This document shows positions 9,977 through 23,725 of a stretch of 64,000 nt of DNA, piece after piece. Within the stretch, counting starts at the first letter, position 1. Each line of letters opens with the position of its first letter. This DNA comes from Escherichia coli (GTDB lineage: Bacteria; Pseudomonadota; Gammaproteobacteria; Enterobacterales; Enterobacteriaceae): assembly GCF_001677475.2 (NCBI RefSeq), contig NZ_CP015229.1, one strand, 5' to 3'. A program made the position numbers and the translations under genes. A model generated the notes under the pieces. It had not been told where the DNA came from. It saw only the letters and a list, made by a program, of their open reading frames with translations, and made no database searches.

Positions 9977-10810
9977 GTGAAAAAAACACAGCAAAAAGAA
10001 ATCGAAAATGTGACAAATATCACAGGTGTTCGTCAAATTGAGTTATGGCGGCGTGATGATTTACAACACCCACGGTTAGATGAGGTCGCGGAAGAAGTTC
10101 CCGTTGCGCTGGTCTACAACGGCATTTCGCATGTGGTGATGATGGCGTCGCCCAAAGACCTTGAGTACTTTGCGCTCGGTTTTTCGCTTTCCGAGGGGAT
10201 AATAGAAAGTCCGCGCGATATCTTCGGCATGGATGTCGTTCCTTCCTGTAATGGTCTTGAAGTACAAATTGAGCTTTCCAGCCGCCGCTTTATGGGGTTG
10301 AAGGAGCGCCGCCGGGCGCTGGCGGGACGTACGGGCTGTGGCGTATGCGGCGTGGAGCAACTTAATGACATCGGAAAACCGGTGCAGCCGCTACCGTTCA
10401 CCCAGACGTTTGATCTCAACAAACTGGATGATGCATTACGTCATCTCAATGATTTCCAGCCAGTGGGGCAACTGACTGGTTGTACTCACGCCGCCGCCTG
10501 GATGTTGCCATCTGGCGAACTGGTCGGCGGGCATGAAGACGTGGGTCGCCATGTGGCGCTGGATAAACTGCTGGGCCGCCGGGCGCAAGAAGGGGAAGGC
10601 TGGCAGCAAGGTGCGGTACTGGTTTCCAGTCGTGCCAGTTATGAAATGGTGCAAAAGTCGGCGATGTGCGGCGTAGAGATTTTGTTTGCGGTGTCTGCCG
10701 CGACCACGCTTGCTGTAGAAGTGGCTGAGCGTTGTAATCTGACGCTGGTAGGTTTTTGTAAACCAGGTCGGGCAACCGTTTATACCCATCCGCAGCGTTT
10801 GAGCAATTAA
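9977..10810 (+). CDS. fdhD: Formate dehydrogenase accessory sulfurtransferase FdhD
   Basis: 277 aa ORF divergent from fdoG. Confidence 0.9.
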
Positions 10811-10962: not shown

Positions 10963-12018
10963 ATGAAAAGGAATTTATTATCTTCCGCTATTATAGTCGC
11001 CATCATGGCCCTCGGTCTGACGGGTTGTGATGATAAAAAAGCCGAAACAGAAACTCCCCCGCCCGCCAATAGTCAACCTGCCGCTCCAGCTCCTGAAGCG
11101 AAACCTACTGAAGCTCCCGTTGCAAAAGCAGAAGCTAAACCTGAAACGCCTGCGCAACCGGTGGTCGATGAACAAGCGGTTTTCGACGAAAAAATGGATG
11201 TCTATATTAAGTGCTACAACAAGTTACAGATCCCTGTACAGAGCAGTCTGGCGCGTTATGCTGACTGGCTGAAAGATTTTAAACAGGGGCCTACCGGTGA
11301 AGAGCGTACTGTTTATGGCATCTACGGCATTAGTGAATCCAGCCTATCTGAGTGTGAAAAAGGCGTAAAAAGTGCTGTGGCGTTAACGCCTGCGCTGCAA
11401 CCAATTGATGGCGTGGCGGTGAGTTATATCGATGCTGCCGTGGCGTTGGGTAATACCATTAACGAAATGGATAAATATTACACCCAGGAAAATTATAAAG
11501 ACGATGCGTTTGCGAAAGGGAAAACGCTGCACCAGACATTCTTAAAAAATCTGGAAGCCTTTGAACCTGTAGCAGAATCTTATCATGCGGCGATTCAGGA
11601 AATTAATGATAAGCGTCAGCTTGCGGAACTGAAAAATATTGAACAAAGAGAAGGGAAAACATTCCACTACTACTCTCTGGCAGTCATGATTTCAGCGAAA
11701 CAAATTAATAACCTGATATCGCAAGATAAGTTTGATGTTGATGCGGCAATGAAGAAAGTCTCTGAACTGGAAACGCTGGTGGCGCAGGCCAAAGAAGCGG
11801 ATAAAGGCGGTATGAATTTCTCGTTCATTAATTCGGCAGACCAGTATCAACTCGAGGCTAAAAAATATGTTCGCCGCGTCAGAGATAAAGTTCCGTACTC
11901 TGACTGGGATAAAGAGCAACTTCAGGATGCAAACACAAGCTGGATGGTCGACGACTCTTTCCCGAGAGCATTACGCGAGTACAACGAAATGGTCGATGAT
12001 TATAATCGCCTGCGTTAA
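10963..12018 (+). CDS. yiiG: Lipoprotein YiiG (DUF3829 family)
   Basis: 351 aa ORF with lipobox LGLTGC and Pro/Ala/Glu-rich linker. Confidence 0.85.
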   Translation: MKRNLLSSAIIVAIMALGLTGCDDKKAETETPPPANSQPAAPAPEAKPTEAPVAKAEAKPETPAQPVVDEQAVFDEKMDVYIKCYNKLQIPVQSSLARYADWLKDFKQGPTGEERTVYGIYGISESSLSECEKGVKSAVALTPALQPIDGVAVSYIDAAVALGNTINEMDKYYTQENYKDDAFAKGKTLHQTFLKNLEAFEPVAESYHAAIQEINDKRQLAELKNIEQREGKTFHYYSLAVMISAKQINNLISQDKFDVDAAMKKVSELETLVAQAKEADKGGMNFSFINSADQYQLEAKKYVRRVRDKVPYSDWDKEQLQDANTSWMVDDSFPRALREYNEMVDDYNRLR

Positions 12019-12044
12019 ACGTTTTTGTTTTTGCTGTGAAATAC

Positions 12045-12082
12045 AAGGTCGGATGTGGCGTAAACGCCTTATCCGACCTACA
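12045..12082. repeat. REP (repetitive extragenic palindrome) element
   Basis: ggatgtggcgtaaacgccttatccgacctac matches the REP family seen repeatedly in this window. Confidence 0.7.
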
Positions 12083-12119
12083 CGTCATTAAGCCGTGTCA
12101 GCTGTGGATCCGACAACAT

Positions 12120-12631
12120 TCACCCCTCGCGAAGTAACGCCATAAACCCTTCATACCCCGTTAGCCCGACAATAGTTTCCGCCGAATGCTGACACAGGAC
12201 GCTGGCAAGATAGCTGAATATTTTTAACTCGTGACGCGCATCGGCGGCGGCGCAGGCGATCAAGACATGGTTAATGACTTCGTTATTCACCTCAACTGGT
12301 TGGGCGAGGGTAATAAAAAATCCACGAAAACGTCGCTCCTGTTCGCTCCAGCAATTTCGCCATCGCTGGCTTTCCAGTCAATGGCCTGCGCTTTGCGGGC
12401 GAACAACACAAAGGGCTGTTTTACGCAGGCGCTTTTACCGTGCGGCACGGCGATGCCGGAACCAAATCCCGTGGAGTGCATTTTTTCGCGCAGCAGCAGG
12501 GTTTGCAGGAACTGGTGTTAGTCGGTGATAAAACCGTTTTGTAACGCCATTGTCGCCAACTGCTTCAGAATGGAATAAGCGCCATTGCCCTGAATATTCA
12601 GGTCAATACAGCTTGCAGTAAGAGCTGCCAT
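12120..12631 (-). pseudogene. frvA: frvA (PTS EIIA fructose-like) pseudogene: in-frame TAA after codon 37 plus a downstream frameshift
   Basis: Minus-strand reading MAALTASCIDLNIQGNGAYSILKQLATMALQNGFITD*HQFLQTLLLREKMHSTGFGSGIAVPHGKSAC... with EIIA motif GIAVPHG; C-terminal part continues in another frame. Confidence 0.7.
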
Positions 12632-13108
12632 TAATCGAACTCCATGAAAAAATATTTCAGTTAATTGTAACGGCGGGGCGGGTTTGTGATGAGCGCGGAT
12701 ATGTCGTGAAGTCGTGACAATATAAAGCAGAGTGAAGGATAAATTTTGCGGGGTAAGGCACATAGTGATTGGTAAAATAAATGTTGTGAATAAAAATTAA
12801 TTCTTTAATGATTTTATGAATGTTTAACTGTCGCGGATATTTTGCTGCAACGTTATTTATATTTGTGGCTTATGAGTCAGCGTGAATCATATCTAATATT
12901 TTTTACGATATTTAGTTAAAAACGGCACTATTGTTATATTCCTCACGTTCCAGGAAATCAGCGGATTTACTCATATTATGCAGCGGGATACTATCCATCG
13001 GCCTGCTGAAGTTGGATTAAAAATTCGAAAGTGCACACCTTATATTTCTCTATATGCGTATTCCTTTTGGAAAGCGTAGGGTCTCTTTTATTTCAGGGAA
13101 CGTAAATA

Positions 13109-14503
13109 ATGAAAAAATCGACATTATCTTTAGCCATCGGTTTATTATTGGCATGTAGTACCGGAATGGCAAAAACACAGCATTTAACGCTGGAACAACG
13201 CATGGCATTGCTGGAAGAACGCCTGGAAGCGGCAGAAATGCGGGCAGCAAAAGCAGAGAGCCAGGTTAAACAGCTGCAGACACAACAAGCCGCTGAGATC
13301 CGCGAAATTAAGACTGCCCAGGGCAATACGCCGGTAAATGGACAGGCAACGGCGGAATCTGCAAAGAAAAATTCCACCTCACCTAATCTTTTGCTCTCAG
13401 GTTATGGCGATTTAAAAATCTACGGCGACGTAGAATTTAATATGGATGCGGAAAGTAATCATGGCCTGCTGGCAATGACCAACGCTGATGTGAATAGCGA
13501 TCCCACTAATGAACAGTGGAATCTCAATGGTCGTATTCTGTTAGGTTTTGATGGTATGCGAAAACTGGATAATGGTTATTTCGCCGGGTTCTCCGCACAA
13601 CCGCTGGGGGACATGCACGGTTCAGTAAATATCGATGATGCGGTATTCTTCTTTGGCAAAGAAAACGACTGGAAGGTCAAAGTAGGCCGTTTTGAAGCCT
13701 ACGATATGTTCCCGCTGAATCAGGATACCTTTGTTGAACATTCCGGTAATACTGCGAACGATCTTTATGACGATGGCAGCGGTTATATCTATATGATGAA
13801 AGAGGGCCGCGGGCGCTCTAACGCTGGCGGTAATTTCCTCGTCAGCAAACAACTTGATAACTGGTATTTTGAATTAAACACGTTACTTGAAGACGGAACA
13901 TCTTTATATAATGATGGTAATTATCATGGACGCGATATGGAGCAGCAGAAAAATGTTGCTTATCTGCGTCCGGTAATTGCCTGGTCGCCGACGGAAGAAT
14001 TCACCGTTTCCGCAGCGATGGAAGCGAACGTGGTAAATAATGCTTATGGTTATACCGATAGCAAGGGTAATTTTGTCGATCAGTCCGATCGTACCGGCTA
14101 TGGTATGAGCATGACCTGGAATGGCCTGAAAACGGATCCGGAAAATGGTGTCGTGGTTAATCTTAATACCGCCTATTTAGATGCTAATAATGAGAAAGAC
14201 TTCACTGCCGGGATTAACGCGCTGTGGAAACGTTTCGAGCTGGGTTATATCTACGCGCACAATAAGATTGATGAATTCAGCGGTGTAGTTTGTGATAACG
14301 ACTGCTGGATTGATGATGAAGGGACGTACACCATTCACACCATTCATGCGTCTTATCAGTTCGCTAATGTGATGGATATGGAGAACTTTAATATTTACCT
14401 CGGGACGTATTACTCCATTCTGGATAGCGACGGTGATAAAAAACACGGTGATGATACTGATGACCGTTACGGCGCACGCGTTCGCTTTAAATACTTCTTC
14501 TGA
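13109..14503 (+). CDS. Putative outer-membrane beta-barrel porin with N-terminal coiled coil (BglH/ScrY-like or OprB-like carbohydrate porin)
   Basis: 464 aa ORF: signal peptide MKKSTLSLAIGLLLACSTGMA, heptad-rich LTLEQRMALLEERLEAAEMRAAKAESQVKQLQ, aromatic-rich body with alternating residues, C-terminal RFKYFF. Confidence 0.6.
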   Translation: MKKSTLSLAIGLLLACSTGMAKTQHLTLEQRMALLEERLEAAEMRAAKAESQVKQLQTQQAAEIREIKTAQGNTPVNGQATAESAKKNSTSPNLLLSGYGDLKIYGDVEFNMDAESNHGLLAMTNADVNSDPTNEQWNLNGRILLGFDGMRKLDNGYFAGFSAQPLGDMHGSVNIDDAVFFFGKENDWKVKVGRFEAYDMFPLNQDTFVEHSGNTANDLYDDGSGYIYMMKEGRGRSNAGGNFLVSKQLDNWYFELNTLLEDGTSLYNDGNYHGRDMEQQKNVAYLRPVIAWSPTEEFTVSAAMEANVVNNAYGYTDSKGNFVDQSDRTGYGMSMTWNGLKTDPENGVVVNLNTAYLDANNEKDFTAGINALWKRFELGYIYAHNKIDEFSGVVCDNDCWIDDEGTYTIHTIHASYQFANVMDMENFNIYLGTYYSILDSDGDKKHGDDTDDRYGARVRFKYFF

Positions 14504-14508
14504 TGAAG

Positions 14509-14540
14509 TCGCGGTGCTGGATATTTTCCGGCACCGCAAC
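14509..14540. terminator. Hairpin between convergent porin gene and rhaM (gcggtgc...gcaccgc)
   Basis: 7-bp inverted repeat; no strong T-run, so weak call. Confidence 0.3.
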
Positions 14541-14543
14541 TCA

Positions 14544-14858
14544 TTAAGGCAGGTAAAACACTTCTTGCAGCTCGCTACTGACTGGGCTGTTATCCGGGTT
14601 AGCTGGCATAACGTCGGTCATATATTTCCACCAACGTTGGCAAACATCAGTACTGGCTACCGCATTCCACCGTTCTTCAGATTCAATCTCTACCGTGGCA
14701 AACAGCAGATTACGCGCTTTGTCGAGGTAAATGGTGTAGTTATGCGCACCGTGAGATTTCAACACTGCTTCCAGTTCCGGCCAGATGGGATTATGCCGAC
14801 GCTGATACTCTTCGTGGGCGTCGGGGTTAACCTGCATGACAAAGGCTTTGCGGATCAT
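14544..14858 (-). CDS. rhaM: L-rhamnose mutarotase
   Basis: 104 aa ORF, position downstream of rhaD. Confidence 0.9.
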
Positions 14859-15774: not shown

Positions 15775-18787
<3,013 letters not shown>

Positions 18788-19624
18788 ATGGCCGTATTAC
18801 ATAGTGTGGATTTTTTTCCGTCTGGTAACGCGTCCGTGGCGATAGAACCCCGGCTCCCGCAAGCGGATTTTCCTGAACATCATCATGATTTTCATGAAAT
18901 TGTGATTGTTGAACATGGCACGGGTATTCATGTGTTTAATGGGCAGCCCTATACCATCACCGGTGGCACGGTCTGTTTTGTGCGCGACCATGATCGGCAT
19001 CTGTATGAACATACCGATAATCTGTGTCTGACCAATGTGCTATATCGCTCGCCGGATCGATTTCAGTTTCTCGCCGGGCTGAATCAGTTGCTGCCACAAG
19101 AGCAGGATGGGCAGTATCCGTCTCACTGGCGAGTTAACCACAGTGTATTGCAGCAGGTGCGACAGCTGGTTGCACAGATGGAACAGCAGGATGGGGAAAA
19201 TGATTTACCCTCGACCGCCAGTCGCGAGATCTTGTTTATGCAATTACTGCTCTTGCTGCGTAAAAGCAGTTTGCAGGAGAACCTGGAAAACAGCGCATCA
19301 CGTCTCAACTTGCTTCTGGCCTGGCTGGAGGACCATTTTGCCGATGAGGTGAATTGGGATGCTGTGGCGGATCAATTTTCTCTTTCGCTGCGTACGCTAC
19401 ATCGGCAGCTTAAGCAGCAAACGGGACTGACGCCTCAGCGTTACCTGAACCGCCTGCGACTGATGAAAGCCCGACATCTGCTACGCCACAGTGAGGCCAG
19501 CGTTACTGACATCGCCTATCATTGCGGATTCAGCGACAGTAACCACTTTTCGACGCTTTTTCGCCGAGAGTTTAACTGGTCTCCGCGTGATATTCGCCAG
19601 GGACGGGATGGCTTTCTGCAATAA
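18788..19624 (+). CDS. rhaS: AraC-family activator RhaS
   Basis: 278 aa ORF with C-terminal HTH. Confidence 0.9.
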
Positions 19625-19697
19625 CGCGAATCTTCTCAACGTATTTGTACGCCATATTGCGAATAATCAACTTCGTTCTCTGGCCGAGGTAGCCACG

Positions 19698-20546
19698 GTG
19701 GCGCATCAGTTAAAACTTCTCAAAGATGATTTTTTTGCCAGCGACCAGCAGGCAGTCGCTGTGGCTGACCGTTATCCGCAAGATGTCTTTGCCGAACATA
19801 CACATGATTTTTGTGAGCTGGTGATTGTCTGGCGCGGTAATGGTCTGCATGTACTCAACGATCGCCCTTATCGCATTACCCGTGGCGATCTCTTTTACAT
19901 TCATGCTGACGATAAACACTCCTACGCTTCCGTTAACGATCTGGTTTTGCAGAATATTATTTATTGCCCGGAGCGGCTGAAGCTGAATCTTGACTGGCAG
20001 GGGGCGATTCCGGGATTTAGTGCCAGCGCAGGGCAACCACACTGGCGCTTAGGTAGCGTGGGGATGGCGCAGGCGCGGCAGGTTATCGGTCAACTTGAGC
20101 ATGAAAGTAGTCAGCATGTGCCGTTTGCTAACGAAATGGCAGAGTTGCTGTTCGGGCAGTTGGTGATGTTGCTGAATCGCCATCGTTACACCAGCGATTC
20201 GTTGCCGCCAACATCCAGCGAAACATTGCTGGATAAGCTGATTACCCGGCTGGCGGCCAGCCTGAAAAGTCCCTTTGCGCTGGATAAATTTTGTGATGAG
20301 GCATCGTGCAGTGAGCGCGTTTTGCGTCAGCAATTTCGCCAGCAGACTGGCATGACCATCAATCAATATCTGCGGCAGGTCAGAGTGTGTCATGCGCAAT
20401 ATCTTCTCCAGCATAGCCGCCTGTTAATCAGTGATATTTCAACCGAATGTGGCTTTGAAGATAGTAACTATTTTTCGGTGGTGTTTACCCGGGAAACCGG
20501 GATGACGCCCAGCCAGTGGCGTCATCTCAATTCGCAGAAAGATTAA
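19698..20546 (+). CDS. rhaR: AraC-family activator RhaR (GTG start at 19698; upstream in-frame ATG at 19608 would overlap rhaS)
   Basis: ORF in frame from 19491; 282-aa form from [13 protein letters not shown]... Confidence 0.85.
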
Positions 20547-21577
20547 TTCGCCATGCCCATGCCGACGATGTTGGCGGCGACAATAATCACCACACAACCG
20601 AGGCTCAACACCGTTACCGGACGGCGACCTGCATTGTTCCACTCTTTCAGCACCAACCCGACGATACCGCCGCACAATACATAGAAGCTCATATGCAGCA
20701 TCCAGCTGATGTAGTCATACTGCGCCGGAATACGCGCGTGGCCCCAGGCATAGAAAAAGAATTGTAGATACCACATCAACCCGCCCAGTGCTGAGAGTAA
20801 CACATTGTGAATGATCAGCGGTTTTGCCAGCGAGAAGTCGGCTTTTAGCGACAAATCCTTCATTTTTGCCAGACGAATAAAACAGAAACCGAGGTTGATG
20901 ATCGCGCCGCCGCCCATGATGACAACATAGCTTGGCAGAGCGACATACAGTGGATCGACGCCTAGTGCGACAGCGGCTTCATGCATCGGTTTTGCGGCGT
21001 TCATCGCAAAGGACATCCCGGCAGAGAAAATGCCGCACATCACCGCCAGCACCAGCCCTTTTTTCAGATTGAACTCTTCGGCTTTAATGCCCATCTTGCG
21101 CTCTTTCAACTGCCCGGCTCGAGTTACAATCCCTACGCCAATCAGCGCCACCAGAACGCCGAGCAACGTCATGCGTCCGCCTTCGGTATTAATCAGCACA
21201 TCGAAATTGCCGTTGATAATTGGCGTCATCAGCGTACCGACAATCAACGTAATGCCAATGGCGATGCCAATTCCCATCGACATGCCGAGATAACGCATGG
21301 TCAGGCCGTAGTTGATATTACCGATCCCCCACATAGCGCCGAACAGAAAAACAGGCAGCAGCGTAGAGAGACTAAACGAGCTGTAATACGCCCAGAAATT
21401 CGGCAGTAACAGGGCGCTGATGGCCCACGGCAGAATAATCCACGAAACAATCCCACCAACTGACCACATGGTTTCCCATGACCATTTTTTTACTTTTTTG
21501 AACGGAGCGTAAAAACAGGCTGCACTGGCCGCGCCGATCAAATGCCAAAATATCCCCATCGTAATCGCGTTACTCAT
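20543..21577 (-). CDS. rhaT: L-rhamnose-proton symporter
   Basis: 344 aa polytopic membrane ORF. Confidence 0.9.
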
Positions 21578-21861
21578 CTTCTTATCCTCATCATTTTTCG
21601 TCGCGTCACATCTCCGACGAGATGAGTGTAAAAATCGTGCTGTCGATTAACCTTTCGCCTGTTGCCGCCGTTGTCGATTTACTGGCAATCACGGCATTAA
21701 GTGGGTGATTTGCTTCACATCTCGGGCATTTTCCTGCAAAACCATACCCTTACGAAAAGTACGGCATTGATAATCATTTTCAATATCATTTAATTAACTA
21801 TAATGAACCAACTGCTTACGCGGCATTAACAATCGGCCGCCCGACAATACTGGAGATGAAT

Positions 21862-22482
21862 ATGAGCTATACCCTGCCATCCCTGCCGTATGCTTACGAT
21901 GCCCTGGAACCGCACTTCGATAAGCAGACCATGGAAATCCACCACACCAAACACCATCAGACCTACGTCAACAACGCCAACGCGGCGCTGGAAAGCCTGC
22001 CAGAATTTGCCAACCTGCCGGTTGAAGAGCTGATCACCAAACTGGACCAGCTGCCAGCAGACAAGAAAACCGTACTGCGCAACAACGCTGGCGGTCACGC
22101 TAACCACAGCCTGTTCTGGAAAGGTCTGAAAAAAGACACCACCCTGCAGGGTGACCTGAAAGCGGCTATCGAACGTGACTTCGGCTCCGTTGATAACTTC
22201 AAAGCAGAATTTGAAAAAGCGGCAGCTTCCCGCTTTGGTTCCGGCTGGGCATGGCTGGTGCTGAAAGGCGATAAACTGGCGGTGGTTTCTACTGCTAACC
22301 AGGACTCCCCGCTGATGGGTGAAGCTATTTCTGGCGCTTCCGGCTTCCCGATTCTGGGCCTGGATGTGTGGGAACATGCTTACTACCTGAAATTCCAGAA
22401 CCGCCGTCCGGACTACATCAAAGAGTTCTGGAACGTGGTGAACTGGGACGAAGCAGCGGCACGTTTCGCGGCGAAAAAATAA
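21862..22482 (+). CDS. sodA: Manganese superoxide dismutase
   Basis: [36 protein letters not shown]... (206 aa). Confidence 0.95.
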
Positions 22483-22741
22483 TCATTTGCCGCCTGCTGC
22501 AATGAGGCGTTTACGCCGCATATCAGCTTAAAAAATGAACCATCGCCAACGGCGGTGGTTTTTTTGTGATCAATTTCAAAATAAAAACAATAATCCGATA
22601 AAAATAAAACAGTGTTTCAATTGATGTGGTTTTGATCACTTTTATTGATTAAATGAATGTCTATCTTCGTTTCCATCAACACTGATGCTCCATTGAGGAA
22701 TTACGCATCAGCCCTTAAAAATATGCCGACAGGTGATGGAA

Positions 22742-23725
22742 ATGCAGATAAAACGCTCGATTGAGAAAATCCCGGGGGGGATGATGCTCGTCCCGCTATT
22801 CCTTGGCGCACTGTGCCACACCTTCTCGCCGGAGGCGGGGAAATATTTTGGATCATTCACCAACGGGATGATTACCGGTACGGTGCCCATTCTGGCGGTG
22901 TGGTTTTTTTGCATGGGGGCGTCAATAAAATTAAGCGCGACGGGAACGGTATTGCGTAAATCCGGTACGCTGGTGGTAACAAAAATTGCCGTCGCGTGGG
23001 TGGTTGCGGCAATTGCCTCGCGCATTATTCCGGAACATGGTGTTGAAGTTGGATTCTTTGCCGGACTTTCAACGCTGGCGCTGGTGGCGGCGATGGATAT
23101 GACAAACGGCGGACTTTACGCTTCCATCATGCAGCAGTACGGCACAAAAGAAGAAGCTGGGGCATTTGTGTTGATGTCGTTGGAGTCCGGGCCGCTCATG
23201 ACGATGATTATTTTGGGCACTGCCGGGATTGCCTCGTTTGAACCGCATGTTTTCGTCGGCGCAGTATTACCGTTCCTGGTGGGCTTTGCCCTGGGGAACC
23301 TTGACCCTGAATTGCGAGAATTTTTCAGCAAAGCGGTGCAAACGCTGATTCCGTTCTTTGCCTTCGCGCTGGGCAATACCATTGATTTGACTGTGATTGC
23401 CCAGACAGGTTTGCTGGGGATCCTGTTGGGTGTGGCAGTAATCATCGTGACCGGTATTCCGTTGATTATCGCCGATAAATTGATTGGCGGTGGCGATGGT
23501 ACAGCCGGAATCGCGGCTTCCAGTTCCGCAGGGGCCGCGGTAGCGACACCTGTGCTGATTGCAGAAATGGTGCCTGCGTTTAAACCGATGGCTCCGGCAG
23601 CAACTTCGCTGGTAGCGACGGCGGTCATTGTGACTTCGATTCTGGTGCCAATTCTTACCTCTATCTGGTCACGTAAAGTCAAAGCCAGAGCGGCGAAAAT
23701 CGAAATTTTAGGTACGGTGAAATAA
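22742..23725 (+). CDS. kdgT: 2-keto-3-deoxygluconate permease
   Basis: 327 aa membrane ORF. Confidence 0.85.

Follow-up and report, generated by a model that had tools for sequence, protein, structure and literature searches.

The 464-amino-acid (aa) open reading frame (ORF) that lies between a frvA remnant and rhaM in a 64,000-nucleotide (nt) stretch of Escherichia coli contig NZ_CP015229.1 (the window) very probably encodes a chromosomal glycoporin of the RafY family, known as rafY2 and annotated as “carbohydrate porin.” Supporting this assignment, aa 104 to 464 of the window porin matched the Pfam family PF16966, Porin_8 (“porin-like glycoporin RafY”), over positions 1 to 372 of a 372-position model (E = 3.7e-154, 513.7 bits), and the same model was matched by every homologue that we aligned (48/48). 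The window porin was also 79% identical over 450 aa to the 464-aa porin of an IncF raf plasmid, where the porin gene follows, in order, genes for a LacI-type regulator, a GH36 alpha-galactosidase, a major facilitator superfamily (MFS) permease, and a GH32 hydrolase. The gene order is that of the classic rafR-A-B-D-Y operon; the plasmid is a different one from pRSD2, and we assume from this operon structure that its porin is equivalent to the published RafY. The LamB-family model PF02264 was not among the Pfam matches listed for the window porin at E <= 10. Searches of NCBIfam and of PDB sequences with the window porin returned only noise, with no porin in the PDB set, which we read as the lack of an equivalog model or a solved structure for the RafY family.

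The gene is not new. It is catalogued and annotated in thousands of genomes, with the RefSeq label “carbohydrate porin” in every E. coli genome inspected, and the founding family member, RafY, has been characterised. O157:H7 strains without rafRABD were described as having a chromosomal “rafY homolog annotated as rafY2” (PMC4809568), and a 2026 genome-wide association study found rafABD in only 23 of 45 E. coli isolates with rafY (PMC12987596). An earlier note on this DNA, made from its letters alone, had proposed a porin of the outer membrane that begins with a signal peptide and a coiled coil and continues as a beta-barrel, and both the Pfam match and the AlphaFold2 model described below agree with that proposal. 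The same note had named a prior assignment of the gene as a reason to abandon its idea, and such an assignment largely exists in the RefSeq label and in the rafY2 name of PMC4809568. Our finding is thus real but ordinary: a known member of a known porin family.

Consistent with the family match, AlphaFold2 predicted a 16-stranded barrel. The input was a 48-sequence alignment from two protein searches that reached down to 24% identity with the query, and the resulting model had a mean predicted local distance difference test (pLDDT) score of 81.4 and a predicted template modelling (pTM) score of 0.71. It contained 16 long beta-strands between residues 99 and 463, with a long loop after strand 5 (195-240) and a small hairpin (313-324) within another loop. 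These strands and the end of the ORF agree with the earlier description of a barrel that ends in RFKYFF with a C-terminal Phe, so that the window porin is predicted to be a secreted outer-membrane barrel that ends in an aromatic residue and has about 16 strands, in place of the 18 of LamB, ScrY, and BglH. Structure comparison listed Omp-Pst1 (23.2), Omp32 (23.1), Vibrio cholerae OmpT (22.8), PorB (22.6), VhChiP (22.3), OmpU (22.3), and DcaP (22.2), and the modelled barrel comes nearest to porins of the OprP/OmpF class rather than to the 18-stranded LamB/ScrY type. Relatives found by Foldseek in AFDB50 were named carbohydrate porin, raffinose porin, glycoporin, or sucrose porin. The TCDB-based statistics in PMC4827864 likewise give 16 strands for the RafY family and 18 for the sugar-porin family. 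Membership of the LamB family was ruled out by the absent PF02264 match, the 16-strand model, and the structure comparison. We also observed a C-D-N-D-C motif with cysteines at aa 395 and 399 (nt 14291-14305), in an unstructured segment (aa 388-404) between the predicted strands at 376-387 and 405-418; its counterpart is kept in closer orthologues and in plasmid RafY (C-N-N-G-C), and Cys395 and Cys399 probably form a loop disulfide.

Ahead of the barrel, aa 27-55 hold L/M/L/L/A/A/A/V/L at the a and d positions of a single heptad register, and AlphaFold2 predicted one helix over residues 28-70 (block pLDDT ~86). The Sugarporin_N family PF11471 matched aa 27-54 of the window porin weakly (E = 0.06). 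When the 48 homologues were scanned individually, eight reached E <= 1e-3 and 21 reached E <= 0.1, with a best value of 5.9e-7. About half of these aligned sequences had no N-terminal extension at all, and many distant family members, at 350-390 aa, are barrel from the very start. As judged from these matches, the N-terminal coil is probably related to the ScrY/BglH-type Sugarporin_N extension and is the only ScrY-like part of the window porin. Thus, of the likeness to ScrY and BglH seen in the earlier note, the coiled coil stands as a probable Sugarporin_N-type element and the expected LamB/ScrY-type barrel does not, given 16 predicted strands versus 18 in LamB/ScrY and no PF02264 match. The allele of strain Seattle 1946 (3001-4374 of its locus) shows natural variation of coil length: it lacks exactly seven codons, encoding MALLEER, with the rest intact, and it keeps the coil register because the loss is exactly one heptad, in frame.

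The gene is widespread in E. coli and maintained by selection. A megablast search with the gene alone found a match in 2857 of 5426 complete E. coli genomes, with at least 80% of the gene covered in 2557 (~47%). By record, identity was >=99% in 590, 95-99% in 1888, 90-95% in 77, and 80-90% in 352; the last group includes plasmid-type rafY, its sampled rows being ~86% identical (two plasmid, one chromosomal). Carriers include BL21(DE3), strain C, O157:H7, Seattle 1946, and isolate “131,” which we assume to be ST131-like. Between the window and O157 porin genes we counted six nonsynonymous and 25 synonymous differences, a ratio of nonsynonymous to synonymous rates (dN/dS) of 0.06; the ratio was 0.04 between the window and GF43 porins and 0.14 between the window porin and plasmid RafY. 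These low ratios indicate that the gene is maintained by purifying selection, and the ORF was intact in 7/7 Escherichia alleles examined. CP057400.1, a 97-kb record classed as an E. coli plasmid, encodes a porin that shares 99.8% identity with the chromosomal allele.

Comparison with K-12 placed the difference precisely. Homology between K-12 and the window was lost after 12781 and regained from 14543, so that the segment 12782-14542 is absent from K-12; 150 bp of unrelated sequence stands there instead, and frvA and rhaM are only 300 bp apart in a K-12 derivative. The K-12 and porin-carrying strains therefore differ by a replacement, not a clean deletion. This confirms the statement in the earlier note that K-12 has no such gene, and the interval that it had marked (12761-14540) is almost exactly the indel, because K-12 homology breaks at 12781/14543. 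The 150 bp in the K-12 frvA-rhaM spacer (3426-3575 of its locus), which stand in place of the 1.76-kb porin segment, carry their own GC-rich hairpin, GTGCCGGAGGCATCTCTGGCAC. We distinguished at least five local configurations in E. coli: frvRXBA with the porin absent (K-12); frvRXBA with the porin (O157); the porin beside a truncated yiiG, with the frv operon missing (ST131-like, Seattle 1946); an internal frv deletion with the porin (window, GF43); and IS1 beside a 75-bp 3' porin remnant (HS30-1).

To place the porin in other genomes, we scanned one genome per species with the window protein, marking neighbours by tblastn with reference proteins from annotated loci. Of the 80 loci recovered, 34 with >=67% identity were taken as orthologues and 46 with <=66% as more distant members. 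Orthologues occurred in Escherichia, Citrobacter, Kluyvera, Klebsiella, Raoultella, Enterobacter, Pseudocitrobacter, Trabulsiella, Superficieibacter, and further Enterobacteriaceae. A convergent rhaM lay within 800 bp (usually ~50 bp) in 24/34 orthologue loci and 0.8-6 kb away in five more, and rafA/rafB lay within 8 kb in nine of the 34. The far flank was frvA in Escherichia and Trabulsiella and a helix-turn-helix (HTH)/cupin regulator with azlCD in Citrobacter and Kluyvera. In Klebsiella sp. B345, K. spallanzanii, K. grimontii, Raoultella terrigena, and Enterobacter sp. JUb54, rafR-rafA-rafB stood immediately upstream of the porin. Insertions between the porin and rhaM consisted of a GntR regulator, a cellobiose-type phosphotransferase system (PTS) IIC gene, and a GH4 glycosidase, or of a LacI regulator, a GPH-family symporter, and a beta-helix protein; K. 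michiganensis had a LacI-GPH-GH32-like-beta-helix set upstream of the porin. The more distant loci were preceded by LacY-like and GH32 genes, by GPH-type transporters, or by an operon of ATP-binding cassette (ABC) transporter, GH13, GH130, and DUF1861 genes, and in none of them (0/46) was rhaM nearby.

These findings describe a porin that has stayed at the border of the rha cluster while modules for glycoside use were gained and lost around it in different enterobacteria. Because no distant member lies near rhaM, the adjacency is inherited synteny of one lineage and not a family trait. The earlier note had called the gene strain-specific, a description refuted by the count in complete E. coli genomes and by the orthologues in the same slot of many genera; the porin is instead an ancestral accessory gene lost in K-12. 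A recent horizontal insertion specific to the source strain was likewise ruled out by those orthologues. Two side observations came from the same scan: the 454-aa beta-helix protein of the rha-side slot had no NCBIfam match, and CACSKA010000012.1, labelled Chryseobacterium sp. 18061, contains a typical Enterobacteriaceae azlC-HTH-porin-rhaM locus, an assembly that is probably mislabelled or contaminated.

Considering the family and the fold together, we suggest how the window porin may work. It would be exported through Sec and then inserted into the outer membrane by the beta-barrel assembly machinery (BAM) as a 16-stranded beta-barrel, with the heptad helix in the periplasm probably joining two others in a coiled coil that keeps a trimer together. 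Judged by its homology with plasmid RafY, the protein is most likely a wide, weakly selective oligosaccharide channel, through which di- to oligosaccharides (raffinose-family sugars, sucrose, maltodextrins) would diffuse to the periplasm faster than via OmpF or OmpC. RafY is said, in work by Ulmke et al. from 1997, to complement lamB and scrY mutants and to pass stachyose and maltoheptaose. Andersen et al. 1998, in a title cited by PMC4827864, call RafY a general diffusion pore. As an orphan gene, the porin would be expressed from its own AT-rich promoter region with a leader stem-loop, and the 3' hairpin would set it apart from rhaM. A recent study of Klebsiella pneumoniae reports that GlyP, a RafY-family porin, is repressed by the LacI-type GlyR and that derepressed GlyP, serving as an alternative wide porin that gives strains without the major porins better access to nutrients, alone restores the competitiveness of OmpK35/36-deficient cells (bioRxiv 10.64898/2026.03.29.715108), which makes GlyP a plausible model for what the orphan copy in E. 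coli could do.

Several points weigh against this view of the gene as a working glycoporin. Trimer formation and pore size are extrapolated. The searchable literature gave no experiment on the chromosomal rafY copy beyond the mentions in PMC4809568 and PMC12987596. In the window, no permease or hydrolase gene adjoins the porin, no raf or other glycoside genes flank it, and tblastn over 12000-13150 for remnants of raf, HTH-cupin, or other genes found only pieces of frvA and frvR. Furthermore, the repeated loss of the gene, in K-12 and through an IS1-associated deletion in HS30-1, indicates that it is dispensable.

We tentatively propose, as an idea that we consider rather unlikely to hold, that the orphan is no leftover but a self-contained “spare” porin with a wide channel, repressed under normal conditions and governed by a control element of its own (AT-rich promoter plus leader stem-loop). 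When switched on by a signal or a mutation, this porin would open the outer membrane to oligosaccharides as well as other bulky solutes. As the earlier note had observed, the region in front of the gene is AT-rich: GC content was 0.34-0.35 in 300-bp windows over 12650-13099 compared to 0.51-0.57 in the flanks, and the ~220 bp before the ATG were partially conserved between E. coli and Citrobacter. A consensus promoter scan was uninformative, with three sites found versus 5.5 expected in shuffles, and the CRP pattern occurred across the window at chance (24 found versus 26.8 expected), so that the CRP-like site listed in Table 1 is a lead only. No Rfam family matched 12700-13200.

A stem-loop was predicted at the same position in most of 33 orthologue leaders, formed by stems of different sequence: GAGATCTC/GAGATTTC in Kluyvera, CAGGTGAG/CTCACCTG in Klebsiella, CGTCTTCCG/CGGAAGACG in C. 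braakii, and GGTGGATT/AATCCAGTC in Enterobacter. Compared with dinucleotide shuffles, the leader segment from -66 to -21 had a mean z of -1.78, with p <= 0.05 for 16/33 distinct leaders, and a control segment from -140 to -95 had a mean z of -0.67 (paired Wilcoxon p = 0.004 between the two segments). Because the leaders are related, and hence are not independent tests, this folding is suggestive and not proof. MAFFT and RNAalifold on 28 leaders gave no consensus structure, as stems of different sequence fail to align, so the claim for a leader hairpin draws only on folds of single sequences and on shuffles. Downstream of the stem-loop comes a conserved TTCTTTATTTCAAGGAA motif that contains the Shine-Dalgarno sequence, and the stem-loop could act as a leader or stabiliser element or as an attenuator.

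At the other end of the gene, the 46-nt hairpin between the porin and rhaM had a folding energy of -28.2 kcal/mol on the + strand and -25.6 kcal/mol on the - strand (z of -7.5 and -7.4), and 0/200 shuffles were as stable. It is probably a bidirectional terminator, which the consensus scan missed because it has no T-run.

A competing explanation, which we consider improbable, is that the gene is a functionless relic, the tail of a chromosomal rafRAB-Y cluster that was stripped of its catabolic genes and is now silent and decaying. The rafR-rafA-rafB genes directly upstream in several Klebsiella, Raoultella, and Enterobacter chromosomes and their absence from E. coli, Citrobacter, and Kluyvera are consistent with such a history, as are the deletion of the gene in K-12-type genomes and the 75-bp remnant beside IS1 in HS30-1, and the AT-rich upstream region would be compatible with H-NS silencing. 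A decaying gene, however, is hard to reconcile with an ORF intact in all seven Escherichia alleles and matched at full length in 2557 genomes, with dN/dS of 0.04-0.06 within E. coli, or with an in-frame loss of one heptad in Seattle 1946 that preserves the coil register. Nor would a relic be expected to keep the promoter-proximal region, the Shine-Dalgarno context, and the leader stem-loop, which are conserved in genera without raf genes.

Another explanation, which we regard as unlikely to about the same degree, concerns the N terminus and would make the protein a lipoprotein in Escherichia: cleavage by signal peptidase II ahead of Cys16 (LLA|C) would leave the N terminus of the coil with a lipid that tethers it to the outer membrane's inner leaflet, a difference from other genera. 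Cys16 stands in a lipobox-like LLAC (aa 13-16) in 7/7 Escherichia alleles examined, which is compatible with a permissive lipobox pattern, and residues 6-16 fit what we take to be the PROSITE-type pattern, with uncharged residues at -10 to -5, L-L-L-A at -4 to -1, and Lys2/Lys3 near the start; Ser at +2 would be compatible with outer-membrane sorting. Leu at -2 is unusual in lipoboxes, however, and all other genera lack Cys16, having LLLVAN or LLLAAN at that place, and the Cys of plasmid RafY lies elsewhere (EYNAC), with no lipobox fit. The conserved motif is a signal peptidase I-type site five residues downstream, G-(F/M)-A|K(T/S), which is common to the closer orthologues. Because this site is conserved and Cys16 is confined to Escherichia, cleavage after Ala21 is favoured over cleavage at Cys16, and as judged from these motifs the signal peptide is most likely cut after Ala21. 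If a lipid anchor at Cys16 did exist, it could be an Escherichia-specific added feature of a spare porin.

The earlier note had also speculated that the porin takes up rhamnose-containing oligosaccharides, and its adjacency to the rhamnose genes was the only support for that idea. We consider it very unlikely that the porin imports such oligosaccharides or rhamnosides to feed rhaBADM: the convergent porin-rhaM junction, with a gap of mostly ~40-60 bp, is indeed kept in 24/34 orthologue loci with a variable gene on the other side, but the adjacency is restricted to one vertically inherited lineage, the neighbours in the loci examined are rafRAB, GntR+PTS IIC+GH4, LacI+GPH+GH32+beta-helix, or none, and the K-12 rha genes are intact without the porin. 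K-12 grows on rhamnose. We saw no rhamnosidase-like or rhamnoside-transport gene in any neighbourhood examined, and each catabolic module that adjoined an orthologue was one for alpha-galactosides or for other glycosides. Since the genes converge on the 46-nt hairpin, the porin and rhaM cannot share a transcript, and co-transcription with the rha genes is thereby excluded. Shared control by RhaS/RhaR was judged on sequence similarity only and was at chance level: against 18401-23000, a segment that begins with the rhaBAD/rhaSR control region and in which the rhaT control region is presumed to lie without having been located, the upstream region gave only matches of 8-10 nt with E-values at chance.

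Table 1. Positions of the porin gene, its predicted parts, its control region, and its neighbours in the window
Feature	Position	Strand	Basis or remark
frvA'-'frvR fusion	12123..12631	-	tblastn: frvA aa 1-92 = 12631..12356, frvR aa 505-582 = 12356..12123
Non-coding AT-rich upstream region	12782..13108	+	Only in porin-carrying genomes; likely promoter and 5' leader
Weak CRP-like site TGTTATATTCCTCACG, 2 mismatches	12932..12947	+	Kept in Citrobacter as TGTTAGATTCCTCACG
Sigma-70-like match	13017-13046		Consensus scan
Leader stem-loop UGCGU.UUCC-UUUU-GGAA.GCGUA	13055..13078	+	~54 to 31 nt before ATG
Porin ORF	13109..14503	+	ATG start, 464 aa, C-terminal ...RVRFKYFF
Signal peptide, aa 1-21 (MKKSTLSLAIGLLLACSTGMA, then KTQ)	13109..13171	+	A-K cleavage-like site kept in closer orthologues
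Predicted periplasmic N-terminal coiled-coil helix, aa 27-70, Sugarporin_N-like	13187..13318	+	AlphaFold2, heptad register, PF11471
Low-complexity disordered linker, aa 71-97	13319..13399	+	pLDDT < 50; most variable segment among alleles
Beta-barrel domain (Porin_8/RafY family), 16 predicted transmembrane strands, C-terminal Phe, plus stop codon	13400..14503	+
Strong intergenic hairpin	14501..14546	both	Fills gap between convergent porin and rhaM stop codons
rhaM (L-rhamnose mutarotase)	14544..14858	-	Convergent neighbour of porin ORF

The coordinates in Table 1 confirm the earlier placement of the 464-aa ORF between the frvA remnant and rhaM, convergent with the latter. On the frv side, the tblastn alignments identify the frvA'-'frvR fusion as the scar of an internal deletion in the frv operon, which removed the end of frvA, frvB and frvX in their entirety, and the greater part of frvR. 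The identical frvA/frvR arrangement occurs in strain GF43, annotated there as pseudogenes; elsewhere in E. coli the operon is complete or is wholly absent with yiiG truncated. Farther away, in the region where fdoG and fdhD diverge, a perfect CRP consensus palindrome, TGTGACAAATATCACA, occurs at 10009-10024, at the beginning of the fdhD ORF as read from GTG 9977.

What this analysis changes is the description of the gene: the rhamnose speculation is removed, a “strain-specific” gene becomes an ancestral accessory gene lost in K-12, and an expected 18-strand LamB/ScrY-like barrel becomes one with 16 predicted strands. An orphan, presumably wide-channel porin under purifying selection is found in about half of E. 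coli (BL21, O157:H7, ST131-like) and is absent from the model strain K-12.

Among known systems, plasmid RafY (pRSD2-type raf operon, PF16966, TCDB 1.B.15) is the closest likeness. The two proteins share a length of 464 aa, the 79% identity, and the full-length family match, along with a signal peptide, an LEQRxxLLEERL coiled coil, a linker, an RFKYFF-ending barrel, and a C-x3-C loop motif, and the 16 strands predicted for the window porin equal the figure given for the RafY family in PMC4827864. In contrast to the plasmid gene, the window gene is a chromosomal orphan with no rafR, rafA, rafB, or rafD nearby, its signal peptide is distinct and places Cys16 in a lipobox-like setting, and its upstream region shows no sequence relationship to the rafD-rafY spacer of the plasmid. 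A glycoside catabolic operon beside the porin, a typical but non-defining feature of the family, is not present at the window and is present beside Klebsiella, Raoultella, and Enterobacter orthologues and distant paralogues. DcaP of Acinetobacter baumannii also has an N-terminal periplasmic coiled coil before a 16-stranded trimeric barrel. DcaP/OprP-type 16-stranded trimeric porins differ in that they are only 11-12% identical to the window porin, have no Pfam family-level relation to it, and have phosphate and dicarboxylates as substrates. With ScrY, BglH, and LamB (PF02264 plus PF11471; TCDB 1.B.3), the window porin shares the presumed role in oligosaccharide entry and probably the Sugarporin_N-type periplasmic coil, and it differs from them in having no LamB-family match and 16 predicted strands instead of 18; RafY, if the title of Andersen et al. 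1998 is a guide, also differs as a general diffusion pore without a sugar-binding site.

GlyP belongs to the same family according to its authors and resembles the paralogues whose genes come after a LacI regulator, a LacY-like permease, and GH32. Its operon also includes a regulator, a permease, and a hydrolase, whereas the E. coli gene stands alone with no adjacent regulator. Given the GlyP result, the E. coli porin could affect the scavenging of oligosaccharides in the gut and the permeability of the outer membrane once the major porins are lost. If the proposal of a spare porin were true, its switching-on would alter how well the carriers, about half of E. coli lineages, compete in the gut and perhaps how antibiotics enter them, much as with GlyP.

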